A stretch of DNA of 64,000 bases from a virus (lineage: Duplodnaviria; Caudoviricetes). The notes under the pieces are model-generated. The model was given only the letters and a program-made list of their open reading frames with translations. It was not told the DNA's origin and did not search any database. Location: positions 2,140-66,139 of the IMG/VR virus record IMGVR_UViG_3300032245_001567. One strand, given 5' to 3'. Of the stretch, positions 11,988 through 26,094 are shown piece after piece (within the stretch, counting starts at the first letter, position 1; the number at the start of each line of letters is the position of its first letter). The position numbers were made by a program, and so were the translations under genes.

Positions 11988-12002
11988 CCTCCCCTTTTTT
12001 TT
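11969..12002. terminator. bidirectional terminator at the convergence of both arms
   Basis: A run, GGGAGG-loop-CCTCCC stem, T run. Confidence 0.85.
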
Positions 12003-12029
12003 GTGACAATAAAAGCGCAGAATCACAAA

Positions 12030-12902
12030 TTATAAAGTACCCGTGTAGGTCAGAGTAGAAAACACCAATTTATCATTGGTGGTCATCAAAATGGGTTGAT
12101 TGAGCGTATTATAGGAAACCCAAAATAATCCCAAACTTGAATTAAACGAAAGAGAATTTGCAATTGCTTGTGCACTTGTAAAATTCCCCGTTAAATTTTG
12201 CGTAGAAAACGATGGGTCTCCTACGTTTTTGTACTGCAAAGATATTTGAGTAATGTTAAATGGTTCATTATTGCCAAAAGCCCATTGCCACAAACCATTT
12301 GCGTTTGCACTTTGCTTAAAAGTATCGGGTGCACCGCCCAAAAGCGATACGATACCCGTAAATGCGATAGTTGAAGGACTACTATTGTTTTTAACCCGTA
12401 AAGGAATCAAAATATTCCTATCGGTATAACTATCCGCCTCTCTTTCAGGGAAATCGGATAAGAAGTCGTAATAATTCAGTTCTTCAAAAAGCGTAGGAGA
12501 ACTCAACAAATTACTTGTAGACTGCTCCATTACGCTAAATACTACCACAATATCTTCTTGTGATAAAATTGGGACGTTGAAATTCTGCATCCCGTTAAAA
12601 GTAAATTGCTCATCGGCTTGTTCGTTGATTACATCGCTTGTAATCGCAGAAACGAATTGATATGGGTCAATTGTAGGGGCAAGTACTTTTTGTTCAAATA
12701 TACCCCGTCTATTGTTCTTCTGAAGCGTTATAACTTGAAACAATTGGTCATAGGTTAATGATTTCATGTACATCCCATTGAGGCTATATTGATAACCTTG
12801 CCCTATGGCTTGTTGAATAACATCATAGGAAGTGCTTCCACCTCCCGTAATTTCCAACCAAGGAAAACCAAAATTATCATATCCTACCGCAATAGTTCCC
12901 AT
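12030..12902 (-). CDS. paralogue of the candidate major capsid protein (minor capsid/vertex protein)
   Basis: QKVLAPTIDPYQF matches QKVFVPTIDPYQY of 25115..25813; beta-rich; extra C-terminal domain. Confidence 0.6.
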   Translation of the reverse strand: MGTIAVGYDNFGFPWLEITGGGSTSYDVIQQAIGQGYQYSLNGMYMKSLTYDQLFQVITLQKNNRRGIFEQKVLAPTIDPYQFVSAITSDVINEQADEQFTFNGMQNFNVPILSQEDIVVVFSVMEQSTSNLLSSPTLFEELNYYDFLSDFPEREADSYTDRNILIPLRVKNNSSPSTIAFTGIVSLLGGAPDTFKQSANANGLWQWAFGNNEPFNITQISLQYKNVGDPSFSTQNLTGNFTSAQAIANSLSFNSSLGLFWVSYNTLNQPILMTTNDKLVFSTLTYTGTL

Positions 12903-13222
12903 TATTTAGCCATTAAAACGTCTTTACCTTCCAAATTCCTTGCAACAAACTGATTACCGCTCTTATAAACGCGTAAGCCATAAGTGTTGGCTAACTCATT
13001 GTTAAGTGCATTCAAGTTTTTAGCACTTTCGCGATTTTCTACTGCACTCATAAAAGCATCCAATGCAATCATAGCATTTTCTTTGTCTTTCAATTCTTGC
13101 TTAGGAGCAACATCAGGCTTAGGAATACCTCCTTTGCCTCGTGGTGTAGTAATAAAAACCACCGCGACAACAATGCCGAGTGTTATAAGGGCTTCTTTAA
13201 CTTGCGTATCAAACATCATCAT
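12902..13222 (-). CDS. N-terminal TM virion membrane protein
   Basis: ALITLGIVVAVVFI. Confidence 0.65.
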   Translation of the reverse strand: MMMFDTQVKEALITLGIVVAVVFITTPRGKGGIPKPDVAPKQELKDKENAMIALDAFMSAVENRESAKNLNALNNELANTYGLRVYKSGNQFVARNLEGKDVLMAK

Positions 13223-13779
13223 ATCTTAATATCCTTAGAACCAATTAGTGTGTATGTGAAGGAATTTGGGTAAAATTCGAGAGATTTTTTGACAATTTTC
13301 ATGAATTCCAAGAAATCTTTTTTGCGTTTGAATACTTGGCAACCTTCAGACCAATTATTAACGAAGTTAGAATCTTCACCCGCCATGTGGATATTTATTC
13401 CCTGAGCATCGGTGTAGATTTTACTTTCATCGTATGTTCCATCTTTTAAATTAAAATCGCGGTAAACACGAAGGGGTCTATATTGACAAAGAGCATCGTA
13501 TAAGCCACGATGTTTGCGAACCATAAAGCATGAAGTATATTGCCACTCTACTAAACGAGCACTACCTTCTCCATTATCGGTGGTGATTGCCCATGAGAAG
13601 TGTTTCCATTCTCCATTTTCTTTATAAGAAACGCAAATAGTATCGTCGAAACGATTGGTAACTTTTTTACCCGTAGATGAATTTCTAATCCCAACGATGT
13701 TAAGATTAAAATCACCTTTTTCATACCACTTGTAACCAAGTGATTTTACGGCTTGTTCTACTTGCTCTTTGGTGTACAT
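13219..13779 (-). CDS. putative endolysin, L,D-transpeptidase(YkuD)-like
   Basis: GINIH...NWSEGCQVF His/Ser-x-Gly-Cys motif. Confidence 0.7.
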   Translation of the reverse strand: MYTKEQVEQAVKSLGYKWYEKGDFNLNIVGIRNSSTGKKVTNRFDDTICVSYKENGEWKHFSWAITTDNGEGSARLVEWQYTSCFMVRKHRGLYDALCQYRPLRVYRDFNLKDGTYDESKIYTDAQGINIHMAGEDSNFVNNWSEGCQVFKRKKDFLEFMKIVKKSLEFYPNSFTYTLIGSKDIKI

Positions 13780-13781
13780 AG

Positions 13782-14141
13782 TTATTTTTTTACAACGTAA
13801 ACGATTACCCCAACCAAAGCCAAAGCACCAATACCTAAACCAACATAAAGCGCAGTATTGCCCTTAGAAGGTGCAGGTTGATTACCTTGATTGGCGAGGA
13901 TGGAAAGTTTTTGTAATTGCAATTGTTGGGCTGCCGTATCTTTTGCTATACCTAACTCAGCATTTAATCTTTGTTGGCTCATGTTGTAGTCCATCTTTCT
14001 ACGCTTAGAAGCGTCGACTCCACCAACTACAACTTTACCTATTGCTTCAATTATTTGCCCAACATTTCCACCACCTGAAGCGGTAGAACCTGCACTTGCG
14101 CCCGTTTCGGCAGCACTTCCTGCTATTTCTCCTAAATTCAT
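13782..14141 (-). CDS. C-terminal TM virion membrane protein
   Basis: G/A/S-rich N-terminus; ALYVGLGIGALALVGVIVYVVKK. Confidence 0.7.
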   Translation of the reverse strand: MNLGEIAGSAAETGASAGSTASGGGNVGQIIEAIGKVVVGGVDASKRRKMDYNMSQQRLNAELGIAKDTAAQQLQLQKLSILANQGNQPAPSKGNTALYVGLGIGALALVGVIVYVVKK

Positions 14142-14142
14142 A

Positions 14143-14478
14143 TTATTTGTTTTTTAAAATTGTATAAGTAAAAACACCAATTGATAACACCCCAAATCCG
14201 AGTGCTAAAAATTGGTCACGTTCCATTTTCTTATCCGCTATTTCATTGGCTTGTTGTTCGATTGTTTTTTGTTGGATTACATTTGAAGCATATTGAGTTG
14301 CAATTGCTTTTAATCCTTTTCTACGCTCTTCTTGATTACCCGATAATGCTTCAGCACTTTTTTTAATTAAATTGTTTTGCGCGTCAAGAAAATACTTTTC
14401 TCGTTCTTTCTTTTTGTCAACGGCATATTTAGAAACTGAATAAGTTGCCATTGCAACGGAAATAATCAAGCCTATCAT
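14143..14478 (-). CDS. membrane protein with a TM at each end
   Basis: Hydrophobic termini, coiled core. Confidence 0.65.
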   Translation of the reverse strand: MIGLIISVAMATYSVSKYAVDKKKEREKYFLDAQNNLIKKSAEALSGNQEERRKGLKAIATQYASNVIQQKTIEQQANEIADKKMERDQFLALGFGVLSIGVFTYTILKNK

Positions 14479-14479
14479 C

Positions 14480-15193
14480 TTAAAATACTTTAGAGCCTAC
14501 ATATTCACCCAATATTTTATAATTGGGCATTTTTAAGTGAATACCATCAGTCGAATTCGCCCTTGTAAAAGAAGGATAAGGAGGCACAATTGCGTATGCC
14601 CCCTTTAAGTTTTTTTGTAAGGAAGAATAGAAAGAAGATAGTCTTTTTGCAGATAACCTTAATGCATCTTGGGTTGCACCTTTGTACATTCGAGATAAAT
14701 CAAATGAAGTAGATACTTTCATAGGGTCATAACCCGTAACCACGATAACCTTGCTACCCTTTTTGTTTCCTGCATTAATCATCGCTTGGATGTTGCTAAT
14801 GCCATCTTGAGTACTTTTGGCTGCTTGGGCTTCGGTTAGATTCCCGTAAATATCGTTTGTGCCACCCCAAATAAAGATGTAATCGGGAGTGGGTTTTGTG
14901 GCAAGGTAAGTATTAAGATTGCTCAACATCCAAGATGTTGTTTTACCATTTCCCGCCACTTTTGCAAGTGATGCTAAACCATACTTATTTTTGATGGCTT
15001 CCCCCCAAGAGTTTGTAGCAAAAGTGTGGCTATCGCCAACTACGAGCATACTTTTCCCTTTGGTAGGTAATTTGTCACCACCCTTTGTGCCATAATCATC
15101 TTCGCCTGAAGAAGATTCGTCATACGCCTTTTGTGCTTGTTTAGCACCAACAAGCAATGACCATAAACCCGCTATCCAAAACATATTTATCAA
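14480..15193 (-). CDS. membrane-anchored SGNH/GDSL hydrolase
   Basis: VVGDSH block I, GGTND block III, DGIH block V; hydrophobic N-terminus. Confidence 0.85.
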   Translation of the reverse strand: MINMFWIAGLWSLLVGAKQAQKAYDESSSGEDDYGTKGGDKLPTKGKSMLVVGDSHTFATNSWGEAIKNKYGLASLAKVAGNGKTTSWMLSNLNTYLATKPTPDYIFIWGGTNDIYGNLTEAQAAKSTQDGISNIQAMINAGNKKGSKVIVVTGYDPMKVSTSFDLSRMYKGATQDALRLSAKRLSSFYSSLQKNLKGAYAIVPPYPSFTRANSTDGIHLKMPNYKILGEYVGSKVF

Positions 15194-15195
15194 AA

Positions 15196-15549
15196 TTATG
15201 AATTAGCCCATGGAAGTGGGGTAGGTTGTGGAGATGGCGCAGGATTTGCTTGTGCTTGAATCTGCGCACTTAAATTTGATTCAACATTTACAACTGCATC
15301 GATTCCCATTTGTGATTTAATCCAACCGATAACGATTTCGTTTGTCAATTGGTCATAAGGAATGAAATTTGTTTGAGATGAGTTCACATCAAAAAATGCA
15401 GCGTTATTTATTTGTGAAGTATAACTTACTCCATTGATTGTTTCATTAGCAATAACACTATAGTTTGCTTGAACTACATAGTCTTGTTCTCCACTTATGG
15501 GGTTAATAGTACTCATGCTATTAACTACCCAATTGTATGATGTTGCCAT
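15196..15549 (-). CDS. fibre-associated/chaperone protein 1
   Basis: FIPYDQLTNEIVIGWI and C-terminal PLPW; follows the fibre gene. Confidence 0.65.
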   Translation of the reverse strand: MATSYNWVVNSMSTINPISGEQDYVVQANYSVIANETINGVSYTSQINNAAFFDVNSSQTNFIPYDQLTNEIVIGWIKSQMGIDAVVNVESNLSAQIQAQANPAPSPQPTPLPWANS

Positions 15550-15557
15550 TTTTAATA

Positions 15558-16598
15558 TTATGATTTTAGTAAAACTTTATAAGGAATTCCATTGATGATT
15601 ACCGACCAACTTCTATCACTTGTAAGAGATTCAACTCTTATTGTTCCTGCATTGTAAGCAGCAGAACCAACAACAAATTGATTTGCTCCCGTAGAAGACG
15701 CGCCTCTACCAATAACAATAGATGCATCGTGTGCGACTACGTCTTGACCGATACCAATCACTGAAGAATGAGAAGAAGTATTTACTTGAGCATTACTTCC
15801 AATTAAAACATTCGACTGACCTGCTACAATAGTATTACCTGCGCTAAAGCCAATTCCCACGTTATTGTTGGATGTGTTATTTTGCAAAGAATATGTACCT
15901 ATCGCTACGTTGTTTTCACCAATAGAATTTGCAAATAATGAAGCAGCACCGATAGCCGTATTGTACGACCCCGTAGTATTATTTTCTGCGGAAGAACCTC
16001 CAACTGAAATATTGTATGTACCCGTGGTATTTAATCTACTTGCATAAGTACCGATAGCCGTATTATTTGAATATACGTTATTTTGCAAGGCTTGATATCC
16101 GATAGCAGTAACTCCCGTAGCGTTGGTTGCAGTTTCGTTTGCAAAACTTCCAATTGCTACGTTTTTAAATCCCGTATTGATAGAAAAACCACTTCTATAT
16201 CCAATCCCTACGTTGTCGTAACCCGTAGTATTAGAATTTAAAGCCAAATTACCTATCGCAGTATTTTCATATCCCGTAGTGTTATTTGTTAATGCTGAAG
16301 CACCAAATGCCGTATTTGTTCCAATCCCCCCCTTACCATAATTCGCAACTTGATTGGAAGCAATTCTCAATGCAGAAAAATTATTTTTATTATCTGAAAC
16401 CGCTTGAAGCGTAGTTGAGATATCGTTTGCAACTTTTAAATTACCACCACTTGAACTCGTAATATAGTCTGATAAATTTTGAACATTGCCATTAATGTCT
16501 TTGATTTTAATTACGCCATCTACGTCATCGACAAAAAGGGCAAGACTATTGCCATCGGGAGATTTTATAGTATTTTTAAGGGATTTGGTTACACTCAT
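15558..16598 (-). CDS. spike/fibre protein 1, beta-helical repeats
   Basis: About 14-aa NTAIGxxALxxNTTG repeats (Hep/Hag-like). Confidence 0.8.
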   Translation of the reverse strand: MSVTKSLKNTIKSPDGNSLALFVDDVDGVIKIKDINGNVQNLSDYITSSSGGNLKVANDISTTLQAVSDNKNNFSALRIASNQVANYGKGGIGTNTAFGASALTNNTTGYENTAIGNLALNSNTTGYDNVGIGYRSGFSINTGFKNVAIGSFANETATNATGVTAIGYQALQNNVYSNNTAIGTYASRLNTTGTYNISVGGSSAENNTTGSYNTAIGAASLFANSIGENNVAIGTYSLQNNTSNNNVGIGFSAGNTIVAGQSNVLIGSNAQVNTSSHSSVIGIGQDVVAHDASIVIGRGASSTGANQFVVGSAAYNAGTIRVESLTSDRSWSVIINGIPYKVLLKS

Positions 16599-16611
16599 TT
16601 TATTTTTTCTT

Positions 16612-17022
16612 TTATGTGAATAAGTCGCTCAATGGGCACATCTTTAAATAGTTATGTCCATCGTGGAATGCGATGTTGATAGTTTTGTTACGCTCGAATA
16701 AAAACGCGGAGAAATTTTGTGGTTCGATATTGTACTCACTAATCTTTCGGACGAGTAATTCGTGAATGACGGGTGATAAAGTGGCTTCTTTTTGAAGGAT
16801 ATCAATCTTAATACCAAGAATATCCTTGAACGTGGATTTTGGTCGAGCAACCTGCCACTTTCTGAAGATGGCGTAATCAAGACCATATTCAGCCGATTGG
16901 GATTGGCTGAGTTTGATTTGAATTTGTATGTCTTCGACCCCGACGTTTTCATTTTTTGCTAATTTACCTAAGCCTTTGCTAAAATCGTTTCTGATTTGTC
17001 CTAAAAAAAATTCTGCTAACAT
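16612..17022 (-). CDS. hypothetical protein
   Basis: Intact ORF behind its own promoter. Confidence 0.7.
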   Translation of the reverse strand: MLAEFFLGQIRNDFSKGLGKLAKNENVGVEDIQIQIKLSQSQSAEYGLDYAIFRKWQVARPKSTFKDILGIKIDILQKEATLSPVIHELLVRKISEYNIEPQNFSAFLFERNKTINIAFHDGHNYLKMCPLSDLFT

Positions 17023-17044
17023 TTTGATTTTGTATTGTTCAATA

Positions 17045-17052
17045 CAAAAATA
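17045..17052 (-). promoter_or_regulatory. promoter -7 element
   Basis: TATTTTTG on the - strand. Confidence 0.55.
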
Positions 17053-17057
17053 TAAAA

Positions 17058-17561
17058 TTACGGGTAATACTCCTTATACAAATTGTAAAGGTTTTTGCCC
17101 GTGTTGCTAAATTTAATAGGAATTGTTGTAAATCCGAATGGGGTTTTAACTTTCATGTTACCTACGAAATCCAAATCGATATCTTGCTTTTGGATTAATT
17201 GTACTACAATATCTCTCCAATTTTTGAAAATCTTTTCGGGGATTACTTCAATAGTAACGAAAATTTGGGTCTTTCCATCGGGCTTAATTGTATAAGCCTC
17301 TGATTGCTGAATCTTTGACAATAAAGCATTCTGAGAGAAAATACTCAAATCAATATCCTTGATTGTGGCTTCAAATGCACTCTTATTTATAATGGTGAAA
17401 TACAAATTGAATTTCAACGTAGGGCTAACACTTACCAATTGATAAGAATCAACGCTATAGTCCCATTGTTGGGCTAACATTACATTTTTGTAAACGTAAC
17501 GCAACAACGCAGAACCCATCAATACTGAGCCACCGATTAATAGTACTTTTTTCGCGTCCAT
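17058..17561 (-). CDS. LEA_2/WHy-like membrane protein
   Basis: N-terminal TM then beta-sandwich pattern IINKSAFEATIKDI...TIKPDGKTQI. Confidence 0.6.
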   Translation of the reverse strand: MDAKKVLLIGGSVLMGSALLRYVYKNVMLAQQWDYSVDSYQLVSVSPTLKFNLYFTIINKSAFEATIKDIDLSIFSQNALLSKIQQSEAYTIKPDGKTQIFVTIEVIPEKIFKNWRDIVVQLIQKQDIDLDFVGNMKVKTPFGFTTIPIKFSNTGKNLYNLYKEYYP

Positions 17562-18205
17562 TATCTTGATTTAAAATATAAAAATCCACCAATTGCAACA
17601 ACTACCAAACCACCTACGATTAAAGTAGATGATTTAATTTCTTTGCCAAATATTTTAACTCCTTGTCCACTTGAAGATGTTGAATCACTTGCGCTTGAAT
17701 CACCTCCGCTTGATGAAGCATCAGAAGTTGGATATTGAACACTTGGTGGTGCACTTGGAGGAGCACTTGAAGAAAGTGTAGGCTTATTTGAAGCGGTTGC
17801 CGTTGGGGCTTCTAAAGCACTCATAGAACGCTCAAGTTCAGCAATTTCATTATTTTTCAATGCAATTTGCTTATCCAATTCGCGAATAGCAGTTGATGCT
17901 TGTTCGATAGCCTTTTTTGCTTGACGAAGCATTAAGTCACCTTTTTTAAAAGCACCTCTTGCTATTTCCCTATTGGCTCTATCTTTCTTGTCATTTTCAC
18001 TATCAAGTTTAACTTGCTCATCTGCACGTTTCTTTTGTAAAGAACTGATTTCAGATTGTTTAGATTTAATCTTCTTTTGATAAGAAGCAACTTCCTTTTG
18101 ATAGTTATCAATAGAACCATCAGCAGAATAAAATCTATCGCCCCCCATGTAAGCAGGGATAGGCGTAATTTGAATTCCAAGTTGTTTGTTTAATGCTTTT
18201 TTCAT
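17561..18205 (-). CDS. coiled-coil, S-rich linker, C-terminal TM virion protein
   Basis: FYSADG motif, coiled coil, poly-S linker, TM plus KSR. Confidence 0.7.
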   Translation of the reverse strand: MKKALNKQLGIQITPIPAYMGGDRFYSADGSIDNYQKEVASYQKKIKSKQSEISSLQKKRADEQVKLDSENDKKDRANREIARGAFKKGDLMLRQAKKAIEQASTAIRELDKQIALKNNEIAELERSMSALEAPTATASNKPTLSSSAPPSAPPSVQYPTSDASSSGGDSSASDSTSSSGQGVKIFGKEIKSSTLIVGGLVVVAIGGFLYFKSR

Positions 18206-18206
18206 C

Positions 18207-18533
18207 TTATTTTTTCTTTACGAAATGGACAATGGTTGCCACCAATGCTATAGCGGTCAAACCAATTCCAATTGTAAAAATGGTTTTTCTACTAATTTTT
18301 GGAGCACTTTCAGTTCCCTCCCATTCAAAATCAACACCTTTTTGTAAGTTAATTGGTTGATATGTTTTTGCAAACGATGGTTCTAATACAATATTACCAC
18401 TTTTAGTTGAAACAAATGTTCCACCATTATCATCTACTATTAAAGTAGAGCCTTTAGTGATAGTAGTAGCCAATTCCCCCGCAGGTTGTTGTCTGAAAAT
18501 TTGAATATTTTTTAATGCGATTGCTTGTTTCAT
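18207..18533 (-). CDS. C-terminal TM virion protein
   Basis: TM followed by KKK. Confidence 0.7.
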   Translation of the reverse strand: MKQAIALKNIQIFRQQPAGELATTITKGSTLIVDDNGGTFVSTKSGNIVLEPSFAKTYQPINLQKGVDFEWEGTESAPKISRKTIFTIGIGLTAIALVATIVHFVKKK

Positions 18534-18534
18534 A

Positions 18535-19047
18535 TTATTTTTTCTTTATTATGTAAACGATAGTTCCAACTAAAGCCAAAACACCTATACCAATACCAAC
18601 GTAAAGCATGGTTTTTTTGCTTTCACTTGAAGCAGAAGTATTTGAAGCACCACTTGCCGTAGCACTTGAAACTGATTCCTTTAATTGGCTTAAAAATGCG
18701 GTATCTTCAGATTGTTGCTTATTGATTTTGCAATTCAATGTGCGATACTTGTCTTCAAGTTTTTTCTTTTGAGAACTCAAAACTTTTTGATAATCGTTCA
18801 AAACGCGTTTTTCGCCTCTTTTTGTACTTGGATTAGCAAGTTTCACCCCATTATTTGCAATTTCGGCATCAATACTTGCGATAGTATTGTCCAACTCCAT
18901 GCAATCTTCGGAAATAGGATACCATTTATCAACTTGGGTTGCACGAGAATCTCCGCCCGTAGCGTTGCTATACTCGTTTGCAAATGAGATACGTCCATCC
19001 ATACCGAATGACATATCATTGTCTTTATAAAAAGAATCTATTTCCAT
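18535..19047 (-). CDS. C-terminal TM virion protein
   Basis: YSNATG motif; TM LYVGIGIGVLALVGTIVYIIKKK nearly identical to that of 13782..14141. Confidence 0.7.
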   Translation of the reverse strand: MEIDSFYKDNDMSFGMDGRISFANEYSNATGGDSRATQVDKWYPISEDCMELDNTIASIDAEIANNGVKLANPSTKRGEKRVLNDYQKVLSSQKKKLEDKYRTLNCKINKQQSEDTAFLSQLKESVSSATASGASNTSASSESKKTMLYVGIGIGVLALVGTIVYIIKKK

Positions 19048-19049
19048 GA

Positions 19050-19442
19050 TTATTTTAGTGTTTTAATGAAGTAGTCAATTTGTGATTTATCTTTAATTGG
19101 CAATAATTGTTCGCCAAAAATATAAACTATGGCTTTTATACTATTGTCACCAATTAATCCATCAACATCTAAAGGCGCATTTGGGAATTCTTTCTCAGGA
19201 TGATTTACAAAATATAAGTTCATTTTGCTTTGAAGCAATCTTGCTTTATCCCTAAATGCAGAATCCTTCATTGCTTCTGCAATTAAATTCAACCCACCTT
19301 TTTTGTATGGTTTTAAATCCATATTAGGGTCAAGAGGTTCATCTGCACCTCCTTTTCCTCTTTGGTTTTTTATATGCAAAGCCAAACCTGCTATTAATAG
19401 CAAGAGACCTCCTAAAAACATATTTTTATCATTCTTTTTCAT
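19050..19442 (-). CDS. N-terminal TM protein with PG-binding-like motif
   Basis: LDVDGLIGDNSIKAI resembles PG_binding_1 DGxxG. Confidence 0.55.
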   Translation of the reverse strand: MKKNDKNMFLGGLLLLIAGLALHIKNQRGKGGADEPLDPNMDLKPYKKGGLNLIAEAMKDSAFRDKARLLQSKMNLYFVNHPEKEFPNAPLDVDGLIGDNSIKAIVYIFGEQLLPIKDKSQIDYFIKTLK

Positions 19443-19446
19443 ATAC

Positions 19447-19944
19447 TTATAATTTTATTACATCCTCTCTAATATAAAGAGTTTTAGGCTTATTTGCCCA
19501 AACATCTCTTGTAAGAAAATTCCTTTGATTGTCTTGAATTTCTTTATACACGGCATCAGTAATTGTAACACCAAGCCACTTCCATTTTTGTTGAGTGCTT
19601 TTATTGAAAGCACCGCCTTTATCTTCAATAGGAGCAGTAGTAACTAAACCTATTTTAGTTCCACTTTTAGGGATTTCACCATATAAATTATCAATAAAAC
19701 CATCATCTGCAAAAGGTTCAGTACGAAGTTTTGCTGAATCTACTTTTGATATAATAGTTAAACCTTTCGTTGATTTTTCACGAATTTTAACGTCAAGTTT
19801 AGGGTCGGGAATATTTTGAGCACTCGTTGATTCTTGAGAATTATCATCTCCTCCATCATCTTTCTTTTTACCCAAAACGATATACATCGCCAATAAAACT
19901 GCGAATAAAGCACCCGTTTTTATTATTGATTTTTCATTTATCAT
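19447..19944 (-). CDS. N-terminal TM protein, SH3b-like
   Basis: AKLRTEP...KWLGV...YIREDVI. Confidence 0.5.
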   Translation of the reverse strand: MINEKSIIKTGALFAVLLAMYIVLGKKKDDGGDDNSQESTSAQNIPDPKLDVKIREKSTKGLTIISKVDSAKLRTEPFADDGFIDNLYGEIPKSGTKIGLVTTAPIEDKGGAFNKSTQQKWKWLGVTITDAVYKEIQDNQRNFLTRDVWANKPKTLYIREDVIKL

Positions 19945-20114
19945 TTTGGTTCTTTTTTAATCTTTTCAATCAAATCCTTCATTTCATTATCCAACGTAGG
20001 ATTAGTATCACTCACTCCTCCTTTTTTACGGATATTCTTATATAAAGCATTGATAAGGATTGAGCCAACAATGCCAATTGAAACCCATAATACTATTTTC
20101 TTATTTCCTTCCAT
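19941..20114 (-). CDS. 57-aa N-terminal TM protein (not in ORF track)
   Basis: MEGNKKIVLWVSIGIVGSILINALYKNIRKKGG...; ATGA-coupled to the next gene. Confidence 0.75.
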   Translation of the reverse strand: MEGNKKIVLWVSIGIVGSILINALYKNIRKKGGVSDTNPTLDNEMKDLIEKIKKEPK

Positions 20115-20115
20115 G

Positions 20116-20571
20116 TTACCCTAACTTAGATTTATAATATACATACCCACGAAGACCAATGTAACCAATCCCCATGAATAACATTGAATAAAGAGCAACT
20201 TTGATAAATTTTCCGCCCCCTAAAGTATTTCCAATTTCACTTATAGAATTGGCTACGCCATTCACTAAATCAAAACCAGAGCCACTAATATCTAATAACT
20301 GAGGGATAAGAGGTATAGCCACACTTGCGTATGGGTCTAATCCTTCTTTTTTAACATACGCACGAAAATTTGTATTAAAAGTTCGGCAATCCCAATGAGA
20401 TGCGAACTCAGTTCCTTGAGCGTATGCATAATTCCAAATCAATTTAGCGCGTTCTTCGCCAAAATGATTCTTCAATTGTTTATGCCAAGTTACCCAATCA
20501 TCACAATTCCAAGCGGTATCTTTCCCCCACTTGTCGTAATCGGGCACTATGTTCCATGTTGTTACTGCCAT
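20116..20571 (-). CDS. Trp-rich protein with C-terminal TM
   Basis: WNCDDWVTWH; TM at end. Confidence 0.7.
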   Translation of the reverse strand: MAVTTWNIVPDYDKWGKDTAWNCDDWVTWHKQLKNHFGEERAKLIWNYAYAQGTEFASHWDCRTFNTNFRAYVKKEGLDPYASVAIPLIPQLLDISGSGFDLVNGVANSISEIGNTLGGGKFIKVALYSMLFMGIGYIGLRGYVYYKSKLG

Positions 20572-20575
20572 TTCT

Positions 20576-21358
20576 TTACTGAATTATCATGTTCATACTT
20601 TCAAAGTCGTTGATGAATTTGTTAATTACATCGTAACGCTCTTTGTTTTGTTGACTTGGTACACCTTTAAAGGTTTCCAAGAATGCTTGATAGGCTTCGA
20701 TACGAGGATATCCTAAACCCAAATAGATTAACAATCCATTCAAGTCTGCTTCGATTTCGTTGTCCATTTGTTCATTCAAATAGAAATGCGAAAACTCGTG
20801 CAAAAGGATAGCCAATCGCATGGGTACAGTCATTTCTTTGAATGCTTTTTTGCTCACTTGAATCACACCCGTTCTACGAGAAATTCTTGCGGGGGTGTTC
20901 ATCTCCTGCTTGTTCTTATTTAAAATAGTAGGCAATAGTTGAATATAGTATTCTCTATCGCTACTTGTATAAATTTGATTAGGCTCAAGTTCGTCCAAGT
21001 TGAATGAAAATCTTTGAGCAAAATCCACAAAACTACGCACCTTCGCGTCACGGATATCATTGATATCAATTCTACGCTCTAATGGCAATTTCTCAACGGA
21101 TAAAAACTCGAAGTTTTCCTTTTCGCCTTTTTTTACAATTCCTTTATCGGGAGTTACTTCTACAATAGCAACATCAGGGGTCAATGGCATCCTTACAAAT
21201 AAAGATTCCTCCCCTTTGATGGTCTTATAGCGATTGGTAAAAACTCGATTAGGGTTTGATGCATCGTAAACCTTCAAACGCAACTTTTGAGGCGTATCGG
21301 TTTTCACCTTCACCTTCAAGTTAAGTTCCTTAAAATTGGTAGTTACTTTGTACTTCAT
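20576..21358 (-). CDS. zincin metalloprotease (candidate maturation protease)
   Basis: ILLHEFSH (HExxH) and EIEAD third-ligand motif; located inside the structural operon. Confidence 0.75.
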   Translation of the reverse strand: MKYKVTTNFKELNLKVKVKTDTPQKLRLKVYDASNPNRVFTNRYKTIKGEESLFVRMPLTPDVAIVEVTPDKGIVKKGEKENFEFLSVEKLPLERRIDINDIRDAKVRSFVDFAQRFSFNLDELEPNQIYTSSDREYYIQLLPTILNKNKQEMNTPARISRRTGVIQVSKKAFKEMTVPMRLAILLHEFSHFYLNEQMDNEIEADLNGLLIYLGLGYPRIEAYQAFLETFKGVPSQQNKERYDVINKFINDFESMNMIIQ

Positions 21359-21573
21359 TATCCAATTGCGTTTTTAGTTTCGTCGGGTGTTTCATTAACT
21401 TTTACATCACCATTCTTTAGTTTGTCTAAAGCACGTTGGATGCTATCGGGTTCGATGTTTTCAGGCTCTAACCCTTTGTTTAATGACGTAGCAGTACTCG
21501 CAAAATAAATTGCTCTTGCTACTACGAAAATGCAACCTCCTATGGCGATTTTAATTAAAAGTTTTTTGTTCAT
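21358..21573 (-). CDS. N-terminal TM protein
   Basis: IAIGGCIFVVARAIYF. Confidence 0.65.
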   Translation of the reverse strand: MNKKLLIKIAIGGCIFVVARAIYFASTATSLNKGLEPENIEPDSIQRALDKLKNGDVKVNETPDETKNAIG

Positions 21574-21839
21574 GCATTTTTTGCTTTAATAAGCCTATAA
21601 CTGAGGTAGACTAAACTTAAAATGCCAATGCCAAACAAAACATTTCGCACCATTACATTTTTACCGCTACCACTTGGTTCTTTGCCCTCATCACCGAGCA
21701 TATTTAACATCTCTTTGTTGGCTTCAACATTCGGGATGTAAATACCCTTGGCTTTTTCTCTTTCAATCCATTCCTTGAAAGGGAGTGTAGTACCGCTTTC
21801 ACGATACAATTGATTCGCTGTTTTTGGTGTGTTGTTCAT
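21570..21839 (-). CDS. C-terminal TM protein
   Basis: MLNMLG motif; TM at end. Confidence 0.65.
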   Translation of the reverse strand: MNNTPKTANQLYRESGTTLPFKEWIEREKAKGIYIPNVEANKEMLNMLGDEGKEPSGSGKNVMVRNVLFGIGILSLVYLSYRLIKAKNA

Positions 21840-21840
21840 A

Positions 21841-22404
21841 TTAATGGAATAAATTATCCAAAGTTAAAGATTTCCCTTTACCACTAAAAGGAATAGTCGA
21901 AGATGGGTTGATGCCGCTACTATCATAACTTGACTTTCCGATTGGACTTGTGGTTTTAGGAATTAAAACAGTACCTCCCGTTGGCAACGTAGAAGTTGGC
22001 GCAGTTGGTAATGTAGAAGTTGGTGCAGTTGAAATTTCAGTTCCCGTATTTACTGAACCCACGGGCAATTGACCAACTTGTAAACCACCACCACTTTGAG
22101 TACCGCTTGAAGTACTCATTGGGATTGGACTTTGAGATTTAATTAAATTTTCCGCTTTCTGAATCGCAGAAACGGAAATTGGAGTTTTAGCCGAAGCCTG
22201 CATAGAAGCAAGGACGGGGGATGTACCTCCGCTACTTACTGAAGCCGAAGATGTTCCAAATGACGGCATTAAACCACCAAAGAAGCCACCGCCTCCGCTT
22301 GAATCTTCGGAAGCACTTGCACCTGCTTTAGGGCAAAAGAAAACATAGTAAACTATGCCAATTACTCCAATAGCACTTGCGATATGATGTTTTTTTAATT
22401 TCAT
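21841..22404 (-). CDS. N-terminal TM, S/T/G/P-rich protein
   Basis: Low-complexity stalk with TAPTSTLP x2. Confidence 0.7.
   Translation of the reverse strand: MKLKKHHIASAIGVIGIVYYVFFCPKAGASASEDSSGGGGFFGGLMPSFGTSSASVSSGGTSPVLASMQASAKTPISVSAIQKAENLIKSQSPIPMSTSSGTQSGGGLQVGQLPVGSVNTGTEISTAPTSTLPTAPTSTLPTGGTVLIPKTTSPIGKSSYDSSGINPSSTIPFSGKGKSLTLDNLFH
21980..22030 (-). repeat. 24-bp tandem duplication (TAPTSTLP x2)
   Basis: gttggYaaYgtagaagttggYgca repeated twice. Confidence 0.8.
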
Positions 22405-22727
22405 CCTAAAGCCCTCCTATTTCTACGATAAAATGGCATCGCAGATACGTCTACCATTTTTCTATTTCTGAAATTTTCGCCATAAGGATTATTCCTTTGA
22501 GCGATGATGTTTTCTTGCTTACCCGCAAAATTTGGGAATGCATTTTGTTCAACCTCCAACATCATGGCGTTGTCTTTGGTGATTTTATTGCAACCGCAAT
22601 CACCGCCAAAGTTTTTATTTTCATCCGCATCATCGGTATCAGACTTCTTGAAAAAATCCGAAGTGATAAATACCCCTACCCCTACAAGGATAACGGCTAT
22701 AGCGATATATTTTTGATTTTTTGTCAT
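22401..22727 (-). CDS. N-terminal TM protein (start revised)
   Basis: MTKNQKYIAIAVILVGVGVFI; KNFGG and FPNFAG motifs. Confidence 0.65.
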   Translation of the reverse strand: MTKNQKYIAIAVILVGVGVFITSDFFKKSDTDDADENKNFGGDCGCNKITKDNAMMLEVEQNAFPNFAGKQENIIAQRNNPYGENFRNRKMVDVSAMPFYRRNRRALG

Positions 22728-22808
22728 AATATTAGTGTTTTGATTTCCAACATTTGTAACCAAGGTATAAACCTAACGCGCCTAACGCGTAGTGAAGATA
22801 TTTCATTT

Positions 22809-23126
22809 TCATTTGATTCTTAATTTTTTAGCGGGTGATACATTAAAAGGGCGATATTTTTTAATTTTCAACCTTTCTCTATGTTGCCCTACTTCTTGGA
22901 AGGGCACAACATGAATTGATGGATTTCCGTCGATGTATTTGTCACCTTTAATCCCCAAAAAATCCTCATCACCCGTCCATGAAGAAAATCCATGGTCGGT
23001 ATTGGTTTCGATATTTGTCTTAGGCTTATTCATTCTTTTTCTGATTATATCCACAATAATTGGGGAAACAACCGCGACAACTACACCAATGATTATGGCT
23101 TTTGTGGTACGGATATCTAAATTCAT
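22809..23126 (-). CDS. N-terminal TM protein (start revised)
   Basis: AIIIGVVVAVVSPIIV; FSSWTGDEDFLG. Confidence 0.65.
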   Translation of the reverse strand: MNLDIRTTKAIIIGVVVAVVSPIIVDIIRKRMNKPKTNIETNTDHGFSSWTGDEDFLGIKGDKYIDGNPSIHVVPFQEVGQHRERLKIKKYRPFNVSPAKKLRIK

Positions 23127-23127
23127 G

Positions 23128-23529
23128 TTATTTAATAATGCTTGATAGAACAGTATCATTAGAAGCGTTCACTAACTTTTTAGTGTTGTGAGCAACTTTC
23201 TTCATGATTTTTTTGCTTTTTCTCATCAAACCACCACCACTTGCATTAGCGAAATTTGGTTCATCAGTGGCAATGGGAATAGCATTCCCTGCACCATTGA
23301 AGAAATCACCTTCACTACCTACATAGGAGAAAAAATCATCCTTAGCGGTGAAACTTGAGAAAAACTCATCTCTACCCGTGAACATTGAAGTTCTTTCAGG
23401 TTCAGAAGATGGAATTTGTGGGATTTTGCTTGAATTGGATGTTGCGTTTTGTTCAAAAATCTTGGACAAAGCAATAACACCCCCTAAAGCAACTCCGATT
23501 GTTAAAAATATTTTAGTATTCTTTTGCAT
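23128..23529 (-). CDS. N-terminal TM protein with repeated F-x-N/S-x-x-G motifs (start revised)
   Basis: FFSSFTA, FFSYVG, FFNGAG, FANASG; basic tail. Confidence 0.7.
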   Translation of the reverse strand: MQKNTKIFLTIGVALGGVIALSKIFEQNATSNSSKIPQIPSSEPERTSMFTGRDEFFSSFTAKDDFFSYVGSEGDFFNGAGNAIPIATDEPNFANASGGGLMRKSKKIMKKVAHNTKKLVNASNDTVLSSIIK

Positions 23530-23530
23530 A

Positions 23531-23836
23531 CTATGCGAACTTTTTAATGAGTTTGTATGAAACAAAACCAACCGCCAAAATACCGAATACGATAATTGCT
23601 ACGTTAGTTTTAGAAACGATTTTTTGCAAAGAAGTAAATGGAACAAATACCACTTTGATTTCTTGTGCATTCACATCATTGAAAGGATAAAAAATACCCT
23701 CTTCGTTCATGCGAAGATTGTCAACTTTTTCAGTGTCAATAATATCTCCCACTTTAAAAATGGGAGTTCTATCCGTTGAACCTACTTTTGAAGTTTCGGT
23801 ATTGTAAAAGTCTTCTTTAAATTTATATTGTGCCAT
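23531..23836 (-). CDS. C-terminal TM protein (start revised)
   Basis: MAQYKFK...; TM plus KKFA. Confidence 0.65.
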   Translation of the reverse strand: MAQYKFKEDFYNTETSKVGSTDRTPIFKVGDIIDTEKVDNLRMNEEGIFYPFNDVNAQEIKVVFVPFTSLQKIVSKTNVAIIVFGILAVGFVSYKLIKKFA

Positions 23837-24063
23837 TAGTTGTTTTCTTGAAATAAGTAATAATTGATTGTACCACCAACAAGTGTACCGATAAGCCCGT
23901 AAACGTAAAGATTCTTTTTGTAATACCAACCAATCATAAGCCCACCGCATAAACCTGCGAATGAACCTTTGGCAGTCTTACCAATCTTTTTTAAAAACTC
24001 ATCTTTGGGTTCAGAACCCTTGATGTTTCTTACGTTATCTAAAGCATCGGAAAAAACACTCAT
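23836..24063 (-). CDS. two-TM small protein
   Basis: Gly-rich hydrophobic hairpin. Confidence 0.65.
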   Translation of the reverse strand: MSVFSDALDNVRNIKGSEPKDEFLKKIGKTAKGSFAGLCGGLMIGWYYKKNLYVYGLIGTLVGGTINYYLFQENN

Positions 24064-24674
24064 TATCTTGTTGCTTTATAAATTGCAAAACCAATCAAAG
24101 ATACGGCAGCAATTGAAATTACTACAATACCCGTAGTTGTCAAACCGCTTTTAGCACCTTGAGCACCTTGGTCGGTTGGAGCAGGAGTAGTTGAAGTGTC
24201 AACTCTTGCGGTATCAAGAATAGTCGGTTGTAAACTTGAACCCGTCTTTTGATAAGACCAAACACCTAAACCCGTGTTAATGATGTTTTGAGTTGTACTC
24301 GCATCAAATACTTCAGACAACCAAGAACCAAATTTACTTGGAGTTTTGGTTTTTGTAGTGGTATCGGTAGTTTGAACATCGGTTAAAGACAAACTTTTGT
24401 TCGCTGGACCGCCAATATTATGATAACCCGACATATTAGAATGCTCTTTATGGAATTCTTTTGCAACGGGAGTGGCTAACTTAGAAAAATCTTTTCTAAA
24501 CGCTCTACTTCTTGGCAATAAAGCAAGGAATGCTCTATCAATTCTTTTCTTATCATCTGATTCTTTCACATTCATGCCATATTTCTGCATTAATGCTACT
24601 ACTTCAGGCTTTTTTTCGTCGATTGTCTTTGCGCTAACTGCAAAAACACCTTCTTTGGTGATTTTATCTTTCAT
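24063..24674 (-). CDS. C-terminal TM virion protein
   Basis: HSNMSG/YHNIGG, T-rich linker, TM. Confidence 0.7.
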   Translation of the reverse strand: MKDKITKEGVFAVSAKTIDEKKPEVVALMQKYGMNVKESDDKKRIDRAFLALLPRSRAFRKDFSKLATPVAKEFHKEHSNMSGYHNIGGPANKSLSLTDVQTTDTTTKTKTPSKFGSWLSEVFDASTTQNIINTGLGVWSYQKTGSSLQPTILDTARVDTSTTPAPTDQGAQGAKSGLTTTGIVVISIAAVSLIGFAIYKATR

Positions 24675-24675
24675 T

Positions 24676-25038
24676 TTAGTGTTTAAGTATAAGTGCGGTC
24701 AAAATGATAAAAGTTGATGCAATCAGAAACGTATTGGTTAATTGAGTTTCTTTTTGTGCTGCGGTCAATTGACTACCAACGGCATTAAGATAGTGTTCTC
24801 TTTCTTTATCAACTTTTTCAATACTTGTGGTATTGGCGGTATGCCCACAACATTCAAGAATAATTTCTTTGTCGGGGTGAATATCCACGATTGCCCTTAA
24901 AGCGGGTTCTCCCTCTTCTTTAACAAGCAATTTCAAGGCTTGTGGTAAGTCGTTTGTACGAATCTCGTAACCGAAATTCTTTATAACTCTTTTAGAGCCT
25001 TGTGGATTTGCTGAGGCAACTCTTTGATATAAATTCAT
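24676..25038 (-). CDS. C-terminal TM virion protein
   Basis: HPDK motif, YLNAVG, TM. Confidence 0.7.
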   Translation of the reverse strand: MNLYQRVASANPQGSKRVIKNFGYEIRTNDLPQALKLLVKEEGEPALRAIVDIHPDKEIILECCGHTANTTSIEKVDKEREHYLNAVGSQLTAAQKETQLTNTFLIASTFIILTALILKH

Positions 25039-25054
25039 AATGTTTAATGCTTAC

Positions 25055-25095
25055 AAAAAGAAAAGGGTGGGGTAAATCTCCCCACCCCTTTTTCT
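25055..25095 (-). terminator. intrinsic terminator after the candidate MCP
   Basis: GGGTGGGG/CCCCACCC stem flanked by A/T runs. Confidence 0.85.
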
Positions 25096-25114
25096 CTATT
25101 AATCACAAAAGTGA

Positions 25115-25813
25115 TTAACCAATTACTTTTACAGATTGAGCCTTCACGATTCCAGGGCTTCCGAATTCGCGAGAAACTGGGCGACCTGCTAAGCCACGAG
25201 CCAAATTGATATTGTCCGCAGGGTAGAAATACAACTTCACTGTAGAAGAAGCCAATACGTTTGCGATAATCAACTTGGTGTAACCATCAATTCTATAACC
25301 ATACTTCATAGCGATGATGGTTGATTGATACTGATATGGGTCGATTGTAGGAACAAACACCTTTTGAGCGATGTTACCATTCGCGTCTTTAGTGTTAACG
25401 CTGATTGTTTCCAATACTTGGTTAGCAGTAGCAGACTGAATGTAAGTCAAACCTACACTATAAGGGCTGTTCATGAACTGATACAACATCTCTTGGTAGT
25501 TTACGTTTGGAATCGCAGAAGCGATAGTAATGCTACCGATGGTCAAAGAACCATTAGAGAAACCAGCGTTGTTGATGTATTGGTAAGAACCTAATACGTC
25601 AAAGTTTGATACGTTGCTACCAGTGTTAGTGATAGTAATGATATAAGGCTGAGATGTTGGAGCAGATGGAGCACCCATTCCTGCACCGCCTTCAGCGTTG
25701 AAAAAATCTTCACCTGCGGTGAAAGACAAATCGTCATCGAAAAAGCCATCGGCATTTGCGAAAGACTCGTGAGCACGATTTTGAGCATCGCTCAAATAAT
25801 TCTTGATATTCAT
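25115..25813 (-). CDS. candidate major capsid protein (single jelly-roll-sized)
   Basis: Beta-rich, no TM, C-ending codon bias, own promoter and terminator, next to the packaging ATPase; acidic N-terminal propeptide-like leader. Confidence 0.65.
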   Translation of the reverse strand: MNIKNYLSDAQNRAHESFANADGFFDDDLSFTAGEDFFNAEGGAGMGAPSAPTSQPYIITITNTGSNVSNFDVLGSYQYINNAGFSNGSLTIGSITIASAIPNVNYQEMLYQFMNSPYSVGLTYIQSATANQVLETISVNTKDANGNIAQKVFVPTIDPYQYQSTIIAMKYGYRIDGYTKLIIANVLASSTVKLYFYPADNINLARGLAGRPVSREFGSPGIVKAQSVKVIG

Positions 25814-25844
25814 TGTTTTATTTTTGTTTTAGATTGTTTTTTTG

Positions 25845-25976
25845 TTAAACTTGAGTTGATGCGGGGGACGCTACTCTACTTTTGTCGATTGTTTTTTGGA
25901 CTTGGTTGGCAACTAATACACCTGCGGCAACGATTGCAACTTGACCAAGAATGACTTTGATTTGATTCCAATTCAT
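25845..25976 (-). CDS. 43-aa TM protein co-transcribed with the MCP (not in ORF track)
   Basis: MNWNQIKVILGQVAIVAAGVLVANQVQKTIDKSRVASPASTQV. Confidence 0.75.
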   Translation of the reverse strand: MNWNQIKVILGQVAIVAAGVLVANQVQKTIDKSRVASPASTQV

Positions 25977-26019
25977 AACTTAATGTTCGTCTATGAAATT
26001 CAGATTTCAGAAGACAACT

Positions 26020-26027: not shown

Positions 26028-26094
26028 TTTTCAAGGATATGATTAAAAAACCCTTATCACTCGAAAAAACACAACTACAAAAGTTGCATATAAC

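Follow-up and report, generated by a model that had tools for sequence, protein, structure and literature searches.

Two proteins encoded 12 kb apart by an uncultured, apparently tailless bacterial virus from lake water, P0001 and P0002, are homologous over a jelly-roll-type beta sandwich. P0002 is a candidate major capsid protein (MCP) of a virus lineage with genomes of 66 to 102 kb, its capsid role being putative, and P0001 may be a vertex or spike-base protein that descends from the capsid protein, a proposal to which we give an even chance and for which we infer both the vertex location and the low copy number. The proposal draws on the homology of the two proteins, the presence of the pair throughout the lineage, a phylogenetic tree, the unequal divergence of the two copies, and the modularity of the second one. 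It also draws on the layout of the genes, in which P0002 lies between two terminator-like hairpins and P0001 comes last, at a distance of 12 kb downstream, and is coupled to the gene of a membrane protein. The putative HerA-type ATPase gene beside the MCP gene, the intervening block rich in transmembrane (TM) segments, and the failure to find tailed-phage families point the same way. The window, meaning the whole stretch of DNA analyzed, is 64,000 nucleotides long, and the features discussed here are listed in Table 1.

Table 1. Positions of the paralogues and neighboring features in the window
Feature	Position	Strand	Basis or remark
P0001, 290 aa, capsid-protein paralogue with extra domains fused to it; ends the late block	12030..12902	-	
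P0001 residues 13-123, homologue of the P0002 core	12534..12866	-	hhalign, hmmsearch, hmmalign
P0001 residues 200-290, C-terminal alpha/beta domain	12033..12305	-	pLDDT about 90
P0002, 232 aa, candidate major capsid protein	25115..25813	-	ORF confirmed as originally predicted
P0002 residues 92-197, part homologous to P0001	25223..25540	-	hhalign, hmmsearch, hmmalign
106-aa protein with one N-terminal TM helix	12902..13222	-	TM prediction
P-loop ATPase, 269 aa, candidate genome-packaging ATPase	26159..26968	-	Walker A, residues 11-18; Walker B, about residues 106-111
Strong terminator-like hairpin directly after the P0002 stop	25061..25091	-	12 pairs, 7 GC, T run
Terminator-like hairpin between the ATPase gene and P0002	26096..26123	-	
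Terminator-like hairpin after P0001, end of the late block	11969..11999	-	Bidirectional with convergent RecT gene
Block between the paralogues, mostly small single-pass membrane proteins	13782..25038	-	
HEFSH zincin, within the block	20576-21358		HEFSH motif
Beta-helix "tail-spike-like" protein, within the block	15558-16598		Pfam/PHROGs

Homology of P0001 and P0002

In its AlphaFold model, P0002 consists of a helix (residues 3 to 18), a disordered acidic arm (residues 19 to 50), a confidently predicted jelly-roll core (residues 55 to 203, approximately), and a C-terminal tail. The acidic arm carries two [FY]xN[AFV]xG motifs, and the same motif is present in four membrane proteins. P0002 is the best conserved among the genes of its block. 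Neither P0001 nor P0002 matched a Pfam family above threshold or gave a convincing PHROG, and a tblastn search of 50,697 phage records with both proteins returned no match. A search of PDB sequences with P0002 and its profile returned chance-level rows only (best profile E value, 0.77) and matched no solved chain; the VP4/VP7 and VP16/VP17 chains were absent both from the profile search and from the 50 fold matches listed. For P0001, Foldseek with the whole model found no match at an E value of ≤0.001, and the Atlas held no usable feature match and a poor model of its own (pLDDT, 0.36). Two other conserved proteins were considered as the true capsid protein and set aside: judging from their sequences, neither the 260-aa protein, which carries the HEFSH zincin motif, nor the 350-aa protein, which is of low complexity and acidic and then basic, appears to resemble a jelly-roll MCP. 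A hidden double jelly-roll (DJR) or HK97 protein may lie elsewhere in the genome.

The original prediction held that the two proteins align as capsid-like paralogues and proposed an HHalign comparison of the pair, and both BLASTP and that comparison bear it out. BLASTP aligned residues 39 to 89 of P0001 with residues 118 to 168 of P0002 without gaps (20/51 identities; E value, 7e-10). With family profiles of 24 and 75 sequences as inputs, hhalign aligned P0001 residues 13 to 123 with P0002 residues 92 to 197 over 103 columns (probability, 96.2%; E value, 2.6e-9), so that the similarity is wider than the PTIDPYQ peptide. Of the P0002 beta core, roughly two thirds lies within the homologous stretch. 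When P0002 was searched against its own 66-kb record, the only matches were itself and the same stretch of P0001 (E value, 9.7e-8). The order of strands and helices is identical over the shared region in two independent AlphaFold models, and in both proteins that region forms a beta sandwich of the jelly-roll type; a peptide-sized similarity between different folds is therefore not what was found.

P0001 has no counterpart of P0002 residues 1 to about 85, which comprise the helix, the acidic arm, and the first two strands. The acidic arm falls in this absent part, as the observation that P0001 lacks the acidic leader had anticipated. Relative to P0002, P0001 has a C-terminal extension of about 165 residues that includes a well-modeled domain at residues 200 to 290. 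This domain is modeled as alpha/beta, and the extra C-terminal beta domain of the original prediction had thus been foreseen correctly in substance. Residues 1 to about 154 of P0001 correspond to a standalone gene of 147 to 154 aa in relatives, referred to here as the mini gene, and 75 clusters share the fused 290-aa form with the present virus. Because strands one and two of the MCP core are missing from the mini domain, it may fall short of a full eight-stranded jelly roll.

That the likeness of the pair reflects chance or a shared motif, or recent patchwise recombination of unrelated genes, seems to us extremely improbable. The highest identity does cluster at the PTIDPYQ peptide, but the 103 profile columns and the common order of secondary structure argue against these readings, as do the mini orthologues of three relatives (G002, G003, and G005), which align to positions 86/89 to 200/201 of the MCP profile with E values of 2e-14 to 4e-17. 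P0001 is also no closer to the MCP of its own genome (39% identity) than to foreign MCPs (36 to 42%). The profile alignments, the matches of the MCP profile in relatives, and the tree described below already contradict such readings.

Gene neighborhood and virus lineage

The P0002 gene follows that of a small, putatively HerA/FtsK-type ATPase and has a terminator-like hairpin on each side. A hairpin lies no more than 90 nucleotides past the stop codon of the capsid gene in all of the relatives' loci (42/42), with energies of -15 to -27.5 kcal/mol and stems that differ in sequence. The ATPase itself was found in 43 of 45 loci at a median identity of 56%. It matches PF01935 (DUF87/HerA) at 25.4 bits against a cutoff of 23.2 (E value, 1.8e-5), its match to phrog_2666 is weak, and among its feature neighbors in the Atlas, a minority of the members carry Zot or DUF87. 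Searches of PDB with a 20-sequence profile of the ATPase gave P-loop-level matches only (ClpB E value, 0.014; HerA E value, 0.042), and the single-sequence search of PDB sequences gave nothing beyond chance or P-loop level.

At the other end of the late block, the gene for the 106-aa membrane protein shares one base with P0001, the TAA stop codon of the former running into the ATG of the latter (TAATG). This pairing of a membrane-protein gene with the mini gene is kept in relatives, where tblastn placed the former directly upstream in L009, L010, L049, L050, and L048/L062. P0001 also comes shortly after lysis-like genes (phrog_3000, with a weak endolysin match) and lies away from the MCP gene. 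Between P0001 and P0002 (positions 12902 to 25038), 19 of 26 ORFs have one Kyte-Doolittle TM segment, a count that takes in two ORFs just below the block listed in Table 1. Pfam and PHROGs assign to that block an LEA_2 protein, a DUF7936 protein, and a GDSL/SGNH esterase as well.

Families of the HK97 capsid, portal, large terminase, and tail were not found with PHROGs and Pfam among the 110 ORFs of the window, although very divergent genes could escape such searches, nor with PHROGs among the 138 ORFs of G001, a relative of 101 kb rated 100% complete. The sole "terminase" row in the hallmark search was a weak match of the small ATPase. Contigs that carry relatives of P0002 have been binned as Bathyarchaeia, Planktophila, and Sediminibacterium. 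In the 132-kb "Sediminibacterium" contig, the 16-kb ends have 31% G+C and short ORFs and therefore give no sign of integration. The lineage, with 576 family clusters, appears to be a large, abundant, and undescribed group of freshwater viruses; our literature search found no paper on it or on MCP-penton sequence homology of this kind.

Conservation and divergence of the pair in relatives

The A1 profile detected both genes in all five relatives (G001 to G005), and the MCP profile detected the second gene in all five records searched, with E values of 1.3e-15 to 5.5e-5. In each of the five relatives, the second gene is a standalone ORF of 147 to 154 aa that covers P0001 residues 10 to 154, approximately. 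In these five it invariably closes the late block, usually preceded by the gene for a small membrane protein. The two paralogues are separated by 12 kb here and by 17 to 38 kb in the relatives.

The two copies have diverged to very different extents. Across the same five relatives, the mini protein is 24 to 33% identical, versus 67 to 72% for the MCP, and in a close subclade P0001 is 51 to 62% identical where the MCP is 86 to 90% identical, for presumed gene pairs; the divergence of mini/P0001 is about four times that of P0002. In a maximum-likelihood tree built from 112 core columns of 10 mini/P0001 sequences, 11 MCPs, and 3 extra domains from G002, all 10 mini/P0001 sequences formed one clade (support, 0.98) apart from the MCPs and the G002 extras, and branches were several-fold longer within it. 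This separate clade indicates that the duplication is old and has not been followed by gene conversion.

The distal part of the second copy is variable and may be fused or unfused. In G004, the counterpart of P0001 residues 181 to 285 is a separate, adjoining ORF of 120 aa, and in G001 a 397-aa ORF follows an in-frame stop codon. G002 encodes three further paralogues beyond the late block, at 6.6, 14.6, and 17.4 kb, which indicates that the domain can serve other roles. It also encodes one polypeptide in which two full copies are fused in tandem.

A possible vertex role for the second copy

We propose that P0002 would be the MCP, a single jelly roll (SJR) with an N-terminal arm, of a large and probably tailless internal-membrane virus of bacteria, and that P0001 would have arisen long ago by duplication of the C-terminal two thirds of this jelly roll. 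P0001 would now serve as a minor component of the virion, most likely as the base of a fivefold-vertex or spike complex. Docking into the capsid lattice would fall to its MCP-like N-terminal domain, while the small membrane protein translated just ahead of it could anchor it to the inner membrane. The C-terminal domain, fused here and encoded separately in one relative or more, would face outward.

Known vertex systems offer a parallel. In PRD1 (Tectiviridae), P31 is the penton base, P5 is the spike protein whose N-terminal domain resembles P31, and the membrane protein P16 ties the vertex to the membrane. By analogy, the present lineage would likewise have a small jelly-roll vertex protein whose base domain is reused N-terminally in a longer spike protein. 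It also shares with PRD1 an associated single-pass membrane protein and, among the late genes, a candidate packaging ATPase and numerous small membrane proteins; the mini gene product resembles small penton-base proteins such as P31 in size. In PM2, the spike protein P1 joins an N-terminal jelly-roll penton base to distal domains, and the MCP, P2, is a DJR protein. PM2 differs in its 10-kb genome and DJR MCP, and its proteins have no sequence relation to the present ones. The arrangement seen in P31/P5 and P1, a small SJR protein that stands alone or at the N terminus of a longer protein, recurs here in the mini gene of all five relatives and in the fused P0001.

Other roles in the particle or the cell have to be weighed against a vertex role. 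P0001 could be a minor virion protein other than a penton base, for example one that cements or decorates the shell, or an adaptor for receptor binding that docks on capsomers by an MCP-like sandwich, a role that we consider unlikely. The mini gene is small, universal, and coupled to a membrane-protein gene, and nothing else separates these roles from that of a vertex protein; for an outer decoration protein in particular, the link to the inner membrane suits a vertex better. We judge it improbable that the capsid-derived domain has been put to nonstructural use, for instance in an assembly chaperone or in a superinfection-exclusion or other host-directed protein. The placement of P0001 after lysis-like genes and the G002 paralogues distant from the late block would fit such a use. 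Against it, the second copy shares the strand of the structural block and ends that block in every record examined, and its translation is coupled to that of a membrane-protein gene in the block. The vertex proposal itself has observations that weigh against it, namely the position of P0001 after lysis-like genes rather than beside the MCP gene, the extra paralogues of G002, and the two core strands that the mini domain lacks.

The original prediction had left the choice between a two-SJR capsid and an MCP-derived penton. In the former case, P0002 and P0001/mini would coassemble as homo- and heterodimers into pseudo-hexameric capsomers, like VP4/VP7 and VP16/VP17, a possibility that we regard as distinctly unlikely. 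This would account for SJR paralogues of unequal size, an ATPase, and many membrane proteins in one virus, and for the presence of the pair in all five relatives; a lone SJR protein must, moreover, somehow occupy six capsomer positions. The sizes of about 150 and 232 aa are near those of the small and large Halopanivirales MCPs. The present virus, putatively tailless and with an internal membrane, a candidate packaging ATPase, and paralogous SJR proteins of unequal size, can be likened to Halopanivirales (Sphaerolipoviridae with VP4/VP7, Simuloviridae, and Thermus phage P23-77 with VP16/VP17), in which tailless virions enclose a membrane, an ATPase serves in packaging, and the paralogous jelly rolls, each single and vertical, differ in size (PMC12643093, PMC12642351, PMC6356626). 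The ICTV profile describes pseudo-hexamers built by two vertical SJR MCPs and ranks sphaerolipovirus MCPs among the most conserved proteins (PMC12643093). Here, only one copy is among the best conserved, at the identities given above, and the second is about four times more diverged. The two genes lie 12 to 38 kb apart, and a conserved terminator cuts P0002 off from everything downstream. The second copy has variable distal parts, fused or unfused, and it lacks the arm with the motif common to P0002 and four membrane proteins. Genomes of the Halopanivirales families are also smaller, at 16 to 31 kb according to the ICTV profiles (PMC12643093, PMC12642351), so that those of the present lineage are 2 to 6 times larger. 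Distance, terminator, divergence, and variable distal part thus incline the choice toward a penton or vertex protein, with a Halopanivirales-style second MCP being the less likely.

We suggest, tentatively, that this lineage preserves in plain sequence similarity the duplication of an SJR capsid protein into a vertex protein. Together with the tandem fusion in G002, it would then form a living series from single jelly roll to diverged paralogue to fused double jelly roll, in tailless membrane phages of 66 to 102 kb or more. To our knowledge, the capsid and penton proteins of known tailless jelly-roll viruses are related by fold only, and their common origin is therefore inferred and not seen. 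The capsid and vertex candidates described here can still be aligned by sequence, and this across an abundant freshwater group with genomes of 66 to 102 kb. If the suggestion is true, the debated origin of pentons and of DJR capsid proteins would become directly testable. Should particle data confirm the roles proposed here, the pair would point to a gene that likely governs host recognition in this abundant group of uncultured phages and would offer a tractable model for the diversification of the jelly roll into shell and vertex parts, for the fusion and splitting of base and distal spike modules, and for the building of a very large capsid from a 232-aa subunit.

Extent of the similarity between P0001 and P0002

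The two open reading frames (ORFs) of the original prediction, which encode P0002, the candidate major capsid protein (MCP), and its paralogue P0001, are both real and lie where it had placed them (see the table). By BLASTP, residues 39-89 of P0001 align without gaps to residues 118-168 of P0002 (20 of 51 identical; E = 7e-10). When P0002 was searched against its own source record (IMG/VR; 66,139 bases, linear, CheckV estimate 88%), the only matches were P0002 itself and this stretch of P0001. Neither protein fell into any Pfam family above threshold or had a convincing match in PHROGs, and tblastn against 50,697 phage records returned zero matches for either. The P0002 family comprises 1,723 clusters at 90% identity (E ≤ 1e-3) and 576 at 50% identity, 288 of these with E ≤ 1e-10. 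Several family members of 320-411 aa in the 50% identity library have two matched stretches each. For P0001 the relatives number 75, almost all of them 286-294 aa in length.

HHalign comparison of the pair, which had been proposed as a check, matched the profile of the 24-sequence P0001 alignment (A1) to that of the 75-sequence P0002 alignment (A2) over 103 columns, pairing P0001 residues 13-123 with P0002 residues 92-197 (probability, 96.2%; E = 2.6e-9). P0001-type proteins of relatives aligned to the A2 HMM from profile positions 86/89 to 200/201 (E = 2e-14 to 4e-17), and in the printed alignment the positions common to both proteins extend to the last strand. Since the profile, HMM, and printed alignments all reach far past the PTIDPYQ peptide, the similarity is not confined to it, and the proposed paralogy holds. 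P0001 lacks the N-terminal arm of P0002, as anticipated from its missing acidic leader.

The P0002 model, folded on A2 (mean pLDDT, 86.9), contains a helix (residues 3-18), a disordered acidic stretch (residues 19-50), and a beta core (residues ~55 to 203; pLDDT >90). Its top PDB match by Foldseek was the cowpea mosaic virus small coat protein (E = 1.8e-3; probability, 0.96), and the other best rows were Ena2A, TNF/C1q heads, and the coat proteins of STMV and tomato aspermy virus; these matches are generic. The two independent models, of P0001 and of P0002, agree over the region aligned by HHalign in how their elements are ordered: strand, helix, strand, short helix, and five further strands.

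Organization and conservation of the late block

A set of 110 ORFs from the window was scanned against PHROGs and Pfam, and no HK97-type capsid, portal, large terminase, tail tube, sheath, or tape-measure family was found among them. The sole "terminase" row was a weak one (E = 3.8e-5) for the P-loop protein encoded next to P0002, which Pfam places in DUF87/HerA with a score narrowly exceeding the cut-off (25.4 bits versus a gathering score of 23.2), with Walker A at residues 11-18 and Walker B shortly past residue 100. Between P0002 and P0001, 19 of 26 ORFs have exactly one predicted transmembrane (TM) segment, located at one end. On the upstream side of P0002 (26159-38473), this holds for 5 of 19 ORFs examined, and those five all score weaker. 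The block also encodes an LEA_2 protein and a GDSL/SGNH esterase (Pfam/PHROGs), and its HEFSH zincin is a possible maturation protease.

When 49 window proteins were compared across 45 related loci, P0002 was the most conserved (median identity, 70%), followed among widely found genes by the ATPase (56%; 43 of 45 loci). Also widespread were the 350-aa protein encoded upstream of the ATPase, a PAP2 protein (40 of 45), and the zincin (36 of 45; median identity, 52%). The 350-aa protein has an acidic N terminus and a strongly basic C terminus; it could be a scaffold or DNA-associated protein.

Records of relatives reach 84-102 kb, with a CheckV rating of 100% complete. One of these, G001, was taken whole (101,210 bases; 138 ORFs against PHROGs at E ≤ 1e-5). 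The small ATPase was the only ORF with a match to any family for heads or packaging; capsid, portal, and tail-tube families were absent from the matches, which did include collagen-like "tail fiber" and endolysin rows. The first 8 kb of G001 also encode six DNA methyltransferases (locus L058; G001:C1:1943-7910), and two more are encoded near the opposite end. Because of the lack of capsid, portal, and tail-tube matches in these scans, the ATPase beside P0002, the one-TM proteins, and the pattern of conservation, we interpret this block as an assembly module, that of a tailless virus with an internal membrane, and P0002 as the MCP, a capsid role that we ourselves infer.

The hairpin directly after the P0002 stop is the strongest terminator-like site in 11500-28500, a region with 33 such sites compared with 12.8 ± 3.9 in shuffles. 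All 42 related loci with enough downstream sequence have a hairpin of -15 to -27.5 kcal/mol no more than 90 nt past the capsid-gene stop, with at least three different stem sequences among them. A strict terminator flag marked 8 of these hairpins; the remaining 34 have their T run within the folded window, where it forms the 3' arm and pairs with a 5' A run. Such insulation would be expected of a capsid gene whose product must greatly outnumber those of the genes that follow. The 345 bases separating the ATPase terminator from the P0002 start hold a 43-aa ORF that has a hydrophobic core. P0002 has two copies of the motif [FY]xN[AFV]xG, both within its disordered arm, and four small membrane proteins encoded in the block have one copy each; P0001 has none.

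Features of the window and of the 102-kb relative G002
Feature	Coordinates	Strand	Remarks
P0001 ORF	12030-12902	minus	290 aa
P0002 ORF	25115-25813	minus	232 aa
P0002 N-terminal part, including the disordered arm	25664-25813		residues 1-50
106-aa protein	12902-13222	minus	one N-terminal TM helix; just upstream of P0001
Beta-helix "tail-spike / virion structural" protein (phrog_6002/4636), then DUF7936 protein	15196-16598	minus	within late block
Second beta-helix (phrog_6002/4636) and DUF7936 pair	29840-31876	minus	upstream of late block
Zincin	20576-21358	minus	260 aa; HEFSH motif; mid structural block
Membrane-protein ORFs with [FY]xN[AFV]xG	18535-19047, 22401-22763, 23128-23571, 24676-25038
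43-aa ORF	25845-25976	minus
P-loop protein (ATPase)	26159-26968	minus	269 aa; directly upstream of P0002
350-aa low-complexity protein	26965-28017	minus	upstream of ATPase; 42/45 loci
Hairpin after P0002 stop	25091-25061		12 pairs, 7 G-C, T run
Hairpin after ATPase gene	26123-26096		terminator-like
Hairpin after P0001	11999-11969		terminator-like
"Polyvalent protein"-type domains	36662-47794	minus	DUF2958, DUF7192, AAA_5/MoxR-like ATPase, ART-PolyVal, DUF5661, DUF932 (both stretches)
"Polyvalent protein"-type domains	2999-3796	plus
RyR-domain protein and at least five glycosyltransferases	48050-55852
Acb2/Tad1 hairpin-domain protein	49976-50227
Extra G002 paralogues (record of L034/L067)	G002:C1:17384-18406, 6650-7150, 14618-15106		outside late block; proteins named with this observation: P0212, P0247, P0313, P0294

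The second gene in relatives

The A1 profile found two places per record, the capsid gene and a second gene, in five of five relatives (G001-G005; E = 2e-23 to 3e-12 for the second), and the A2 profile found the same second place in all five records searched (G000-G004; E = 1.3e-15 to 5.5e-5). In relatives, this "mini" gene stands alone as an ORF of 147-154 aa that covers P0001 residues ~10-154, and 17-38 kb separate it from the capsid gene. In records that extend far enough, it ends the late block and adjoins convergent RecT and PD-(D/E)XK genes, as in the window. The gene for the 106-aa TM protein shares one base with the start of P0001 (TAATG), and in L009, L010, G004, G003, and G001 it immediately precedes the mini gene. 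The ORF after the mini gene in G004 (120 aa) resembles P0001 residues 181-285 (32%; E = 4.7e-6), a 397-aa ORF follows in G001 in the same frame past one TAA, and the C-terminal part lies close behind the mini gene in L009 and L010. With the distal part thus a separate or following ORF, P0001 is a fused protein whose base and distal domains are encoded by separate genes elsewhere.

One relative (L005/L068/L069) lies on a 132,486-base contig binned as Sediminibacterium (G005 contig C9). Since both of its 16-kb ends are ~31% G+C with short ORFs, all of the contig may be viral, as opposed to harboring an integrated prophage. Further matches lie on small contigs binned as Bathyarchaeia and Planktophila, which are probably mis-binned.

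A maximum-likelihood tree was built from 112 core columns of 10 mini/P0001 sequences, 11 capsid proteins (some just ~30% identical to P0002), and three extra domains from G002. All 10 mini/P0001 sequences formed one clade (support, 0.98) apart from the others, and the branches in that clade are several-fold longer. P0001 is 24-33% identical to mini proteins, compared with 67-71% for capsid proteins of the same records; in the close subclade, where proteins were paired on the inference that contigs of equal length are the same genome, the values are 51-62% versus 86-90%. P0001 is 39% identical to its own-genome capsid protein, which is not above the 36-42% seen with foreign capsid proteins, and this comparison therefore gives no indication of gene conversion. 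Small, fast-evolving, and C-terminally modular, the second copy is also old, and it is universal among the records examined.

Possible role of P0001

The second copy closes the late block, behind the conserved terminator, and is coupled to a membrane protein. Together with its age, universality, small size, rapid evolution, modularity, and lack of the arm and motif, these features fit a low-copy vertex or spike-base protein, a reading to which we give roughly an even chance. Analogous vertex or spike-base proteins are PRD1 P31/P5, with the membrane protein P16, and PM2 P1. Against the vertex reading, G002 has three further paralogous genes outside the late block. One of these encodes a tandem of two full jelly-roll copies within one 406-aa reading frame (protein, 397 aa), with domain E-values of 7.9e-45 and 1.6e-41 against the MCP profile. 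Another minor virion role is unlikely, and a nonstructural one is very unlikely.

The original prediction had offered either a capsid of two single jelly-roll (SJR) proteins or an MCP-derived penton. Divergence, position, and modularity favor a penton or vertex protein, and a second, co-equal MCP is unlikely. In sphaerolipoviruses, both SJR MCPs are among the most conserved proteins (PMC12643093), whereas P0001/mini is fast-evolving. Genomes of this lineage are 66-102 kb, versus the 16-31 kb given for Simuloviridae and Sphaerolipoviridae (PMC12642351, PMC12643093). A full-text literature search, judged mostly from abstracts, found no published description of the lineage. The combination of a jelly-roll capsid protein with a jelly-roll vertex protein, or of two jelly-roll capsid paralogues, is already known. 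Two things differ here: the capsid protein and the second protein can still be aligned by sequence, and the base and distal parts, fused in some genomes, are split in others.
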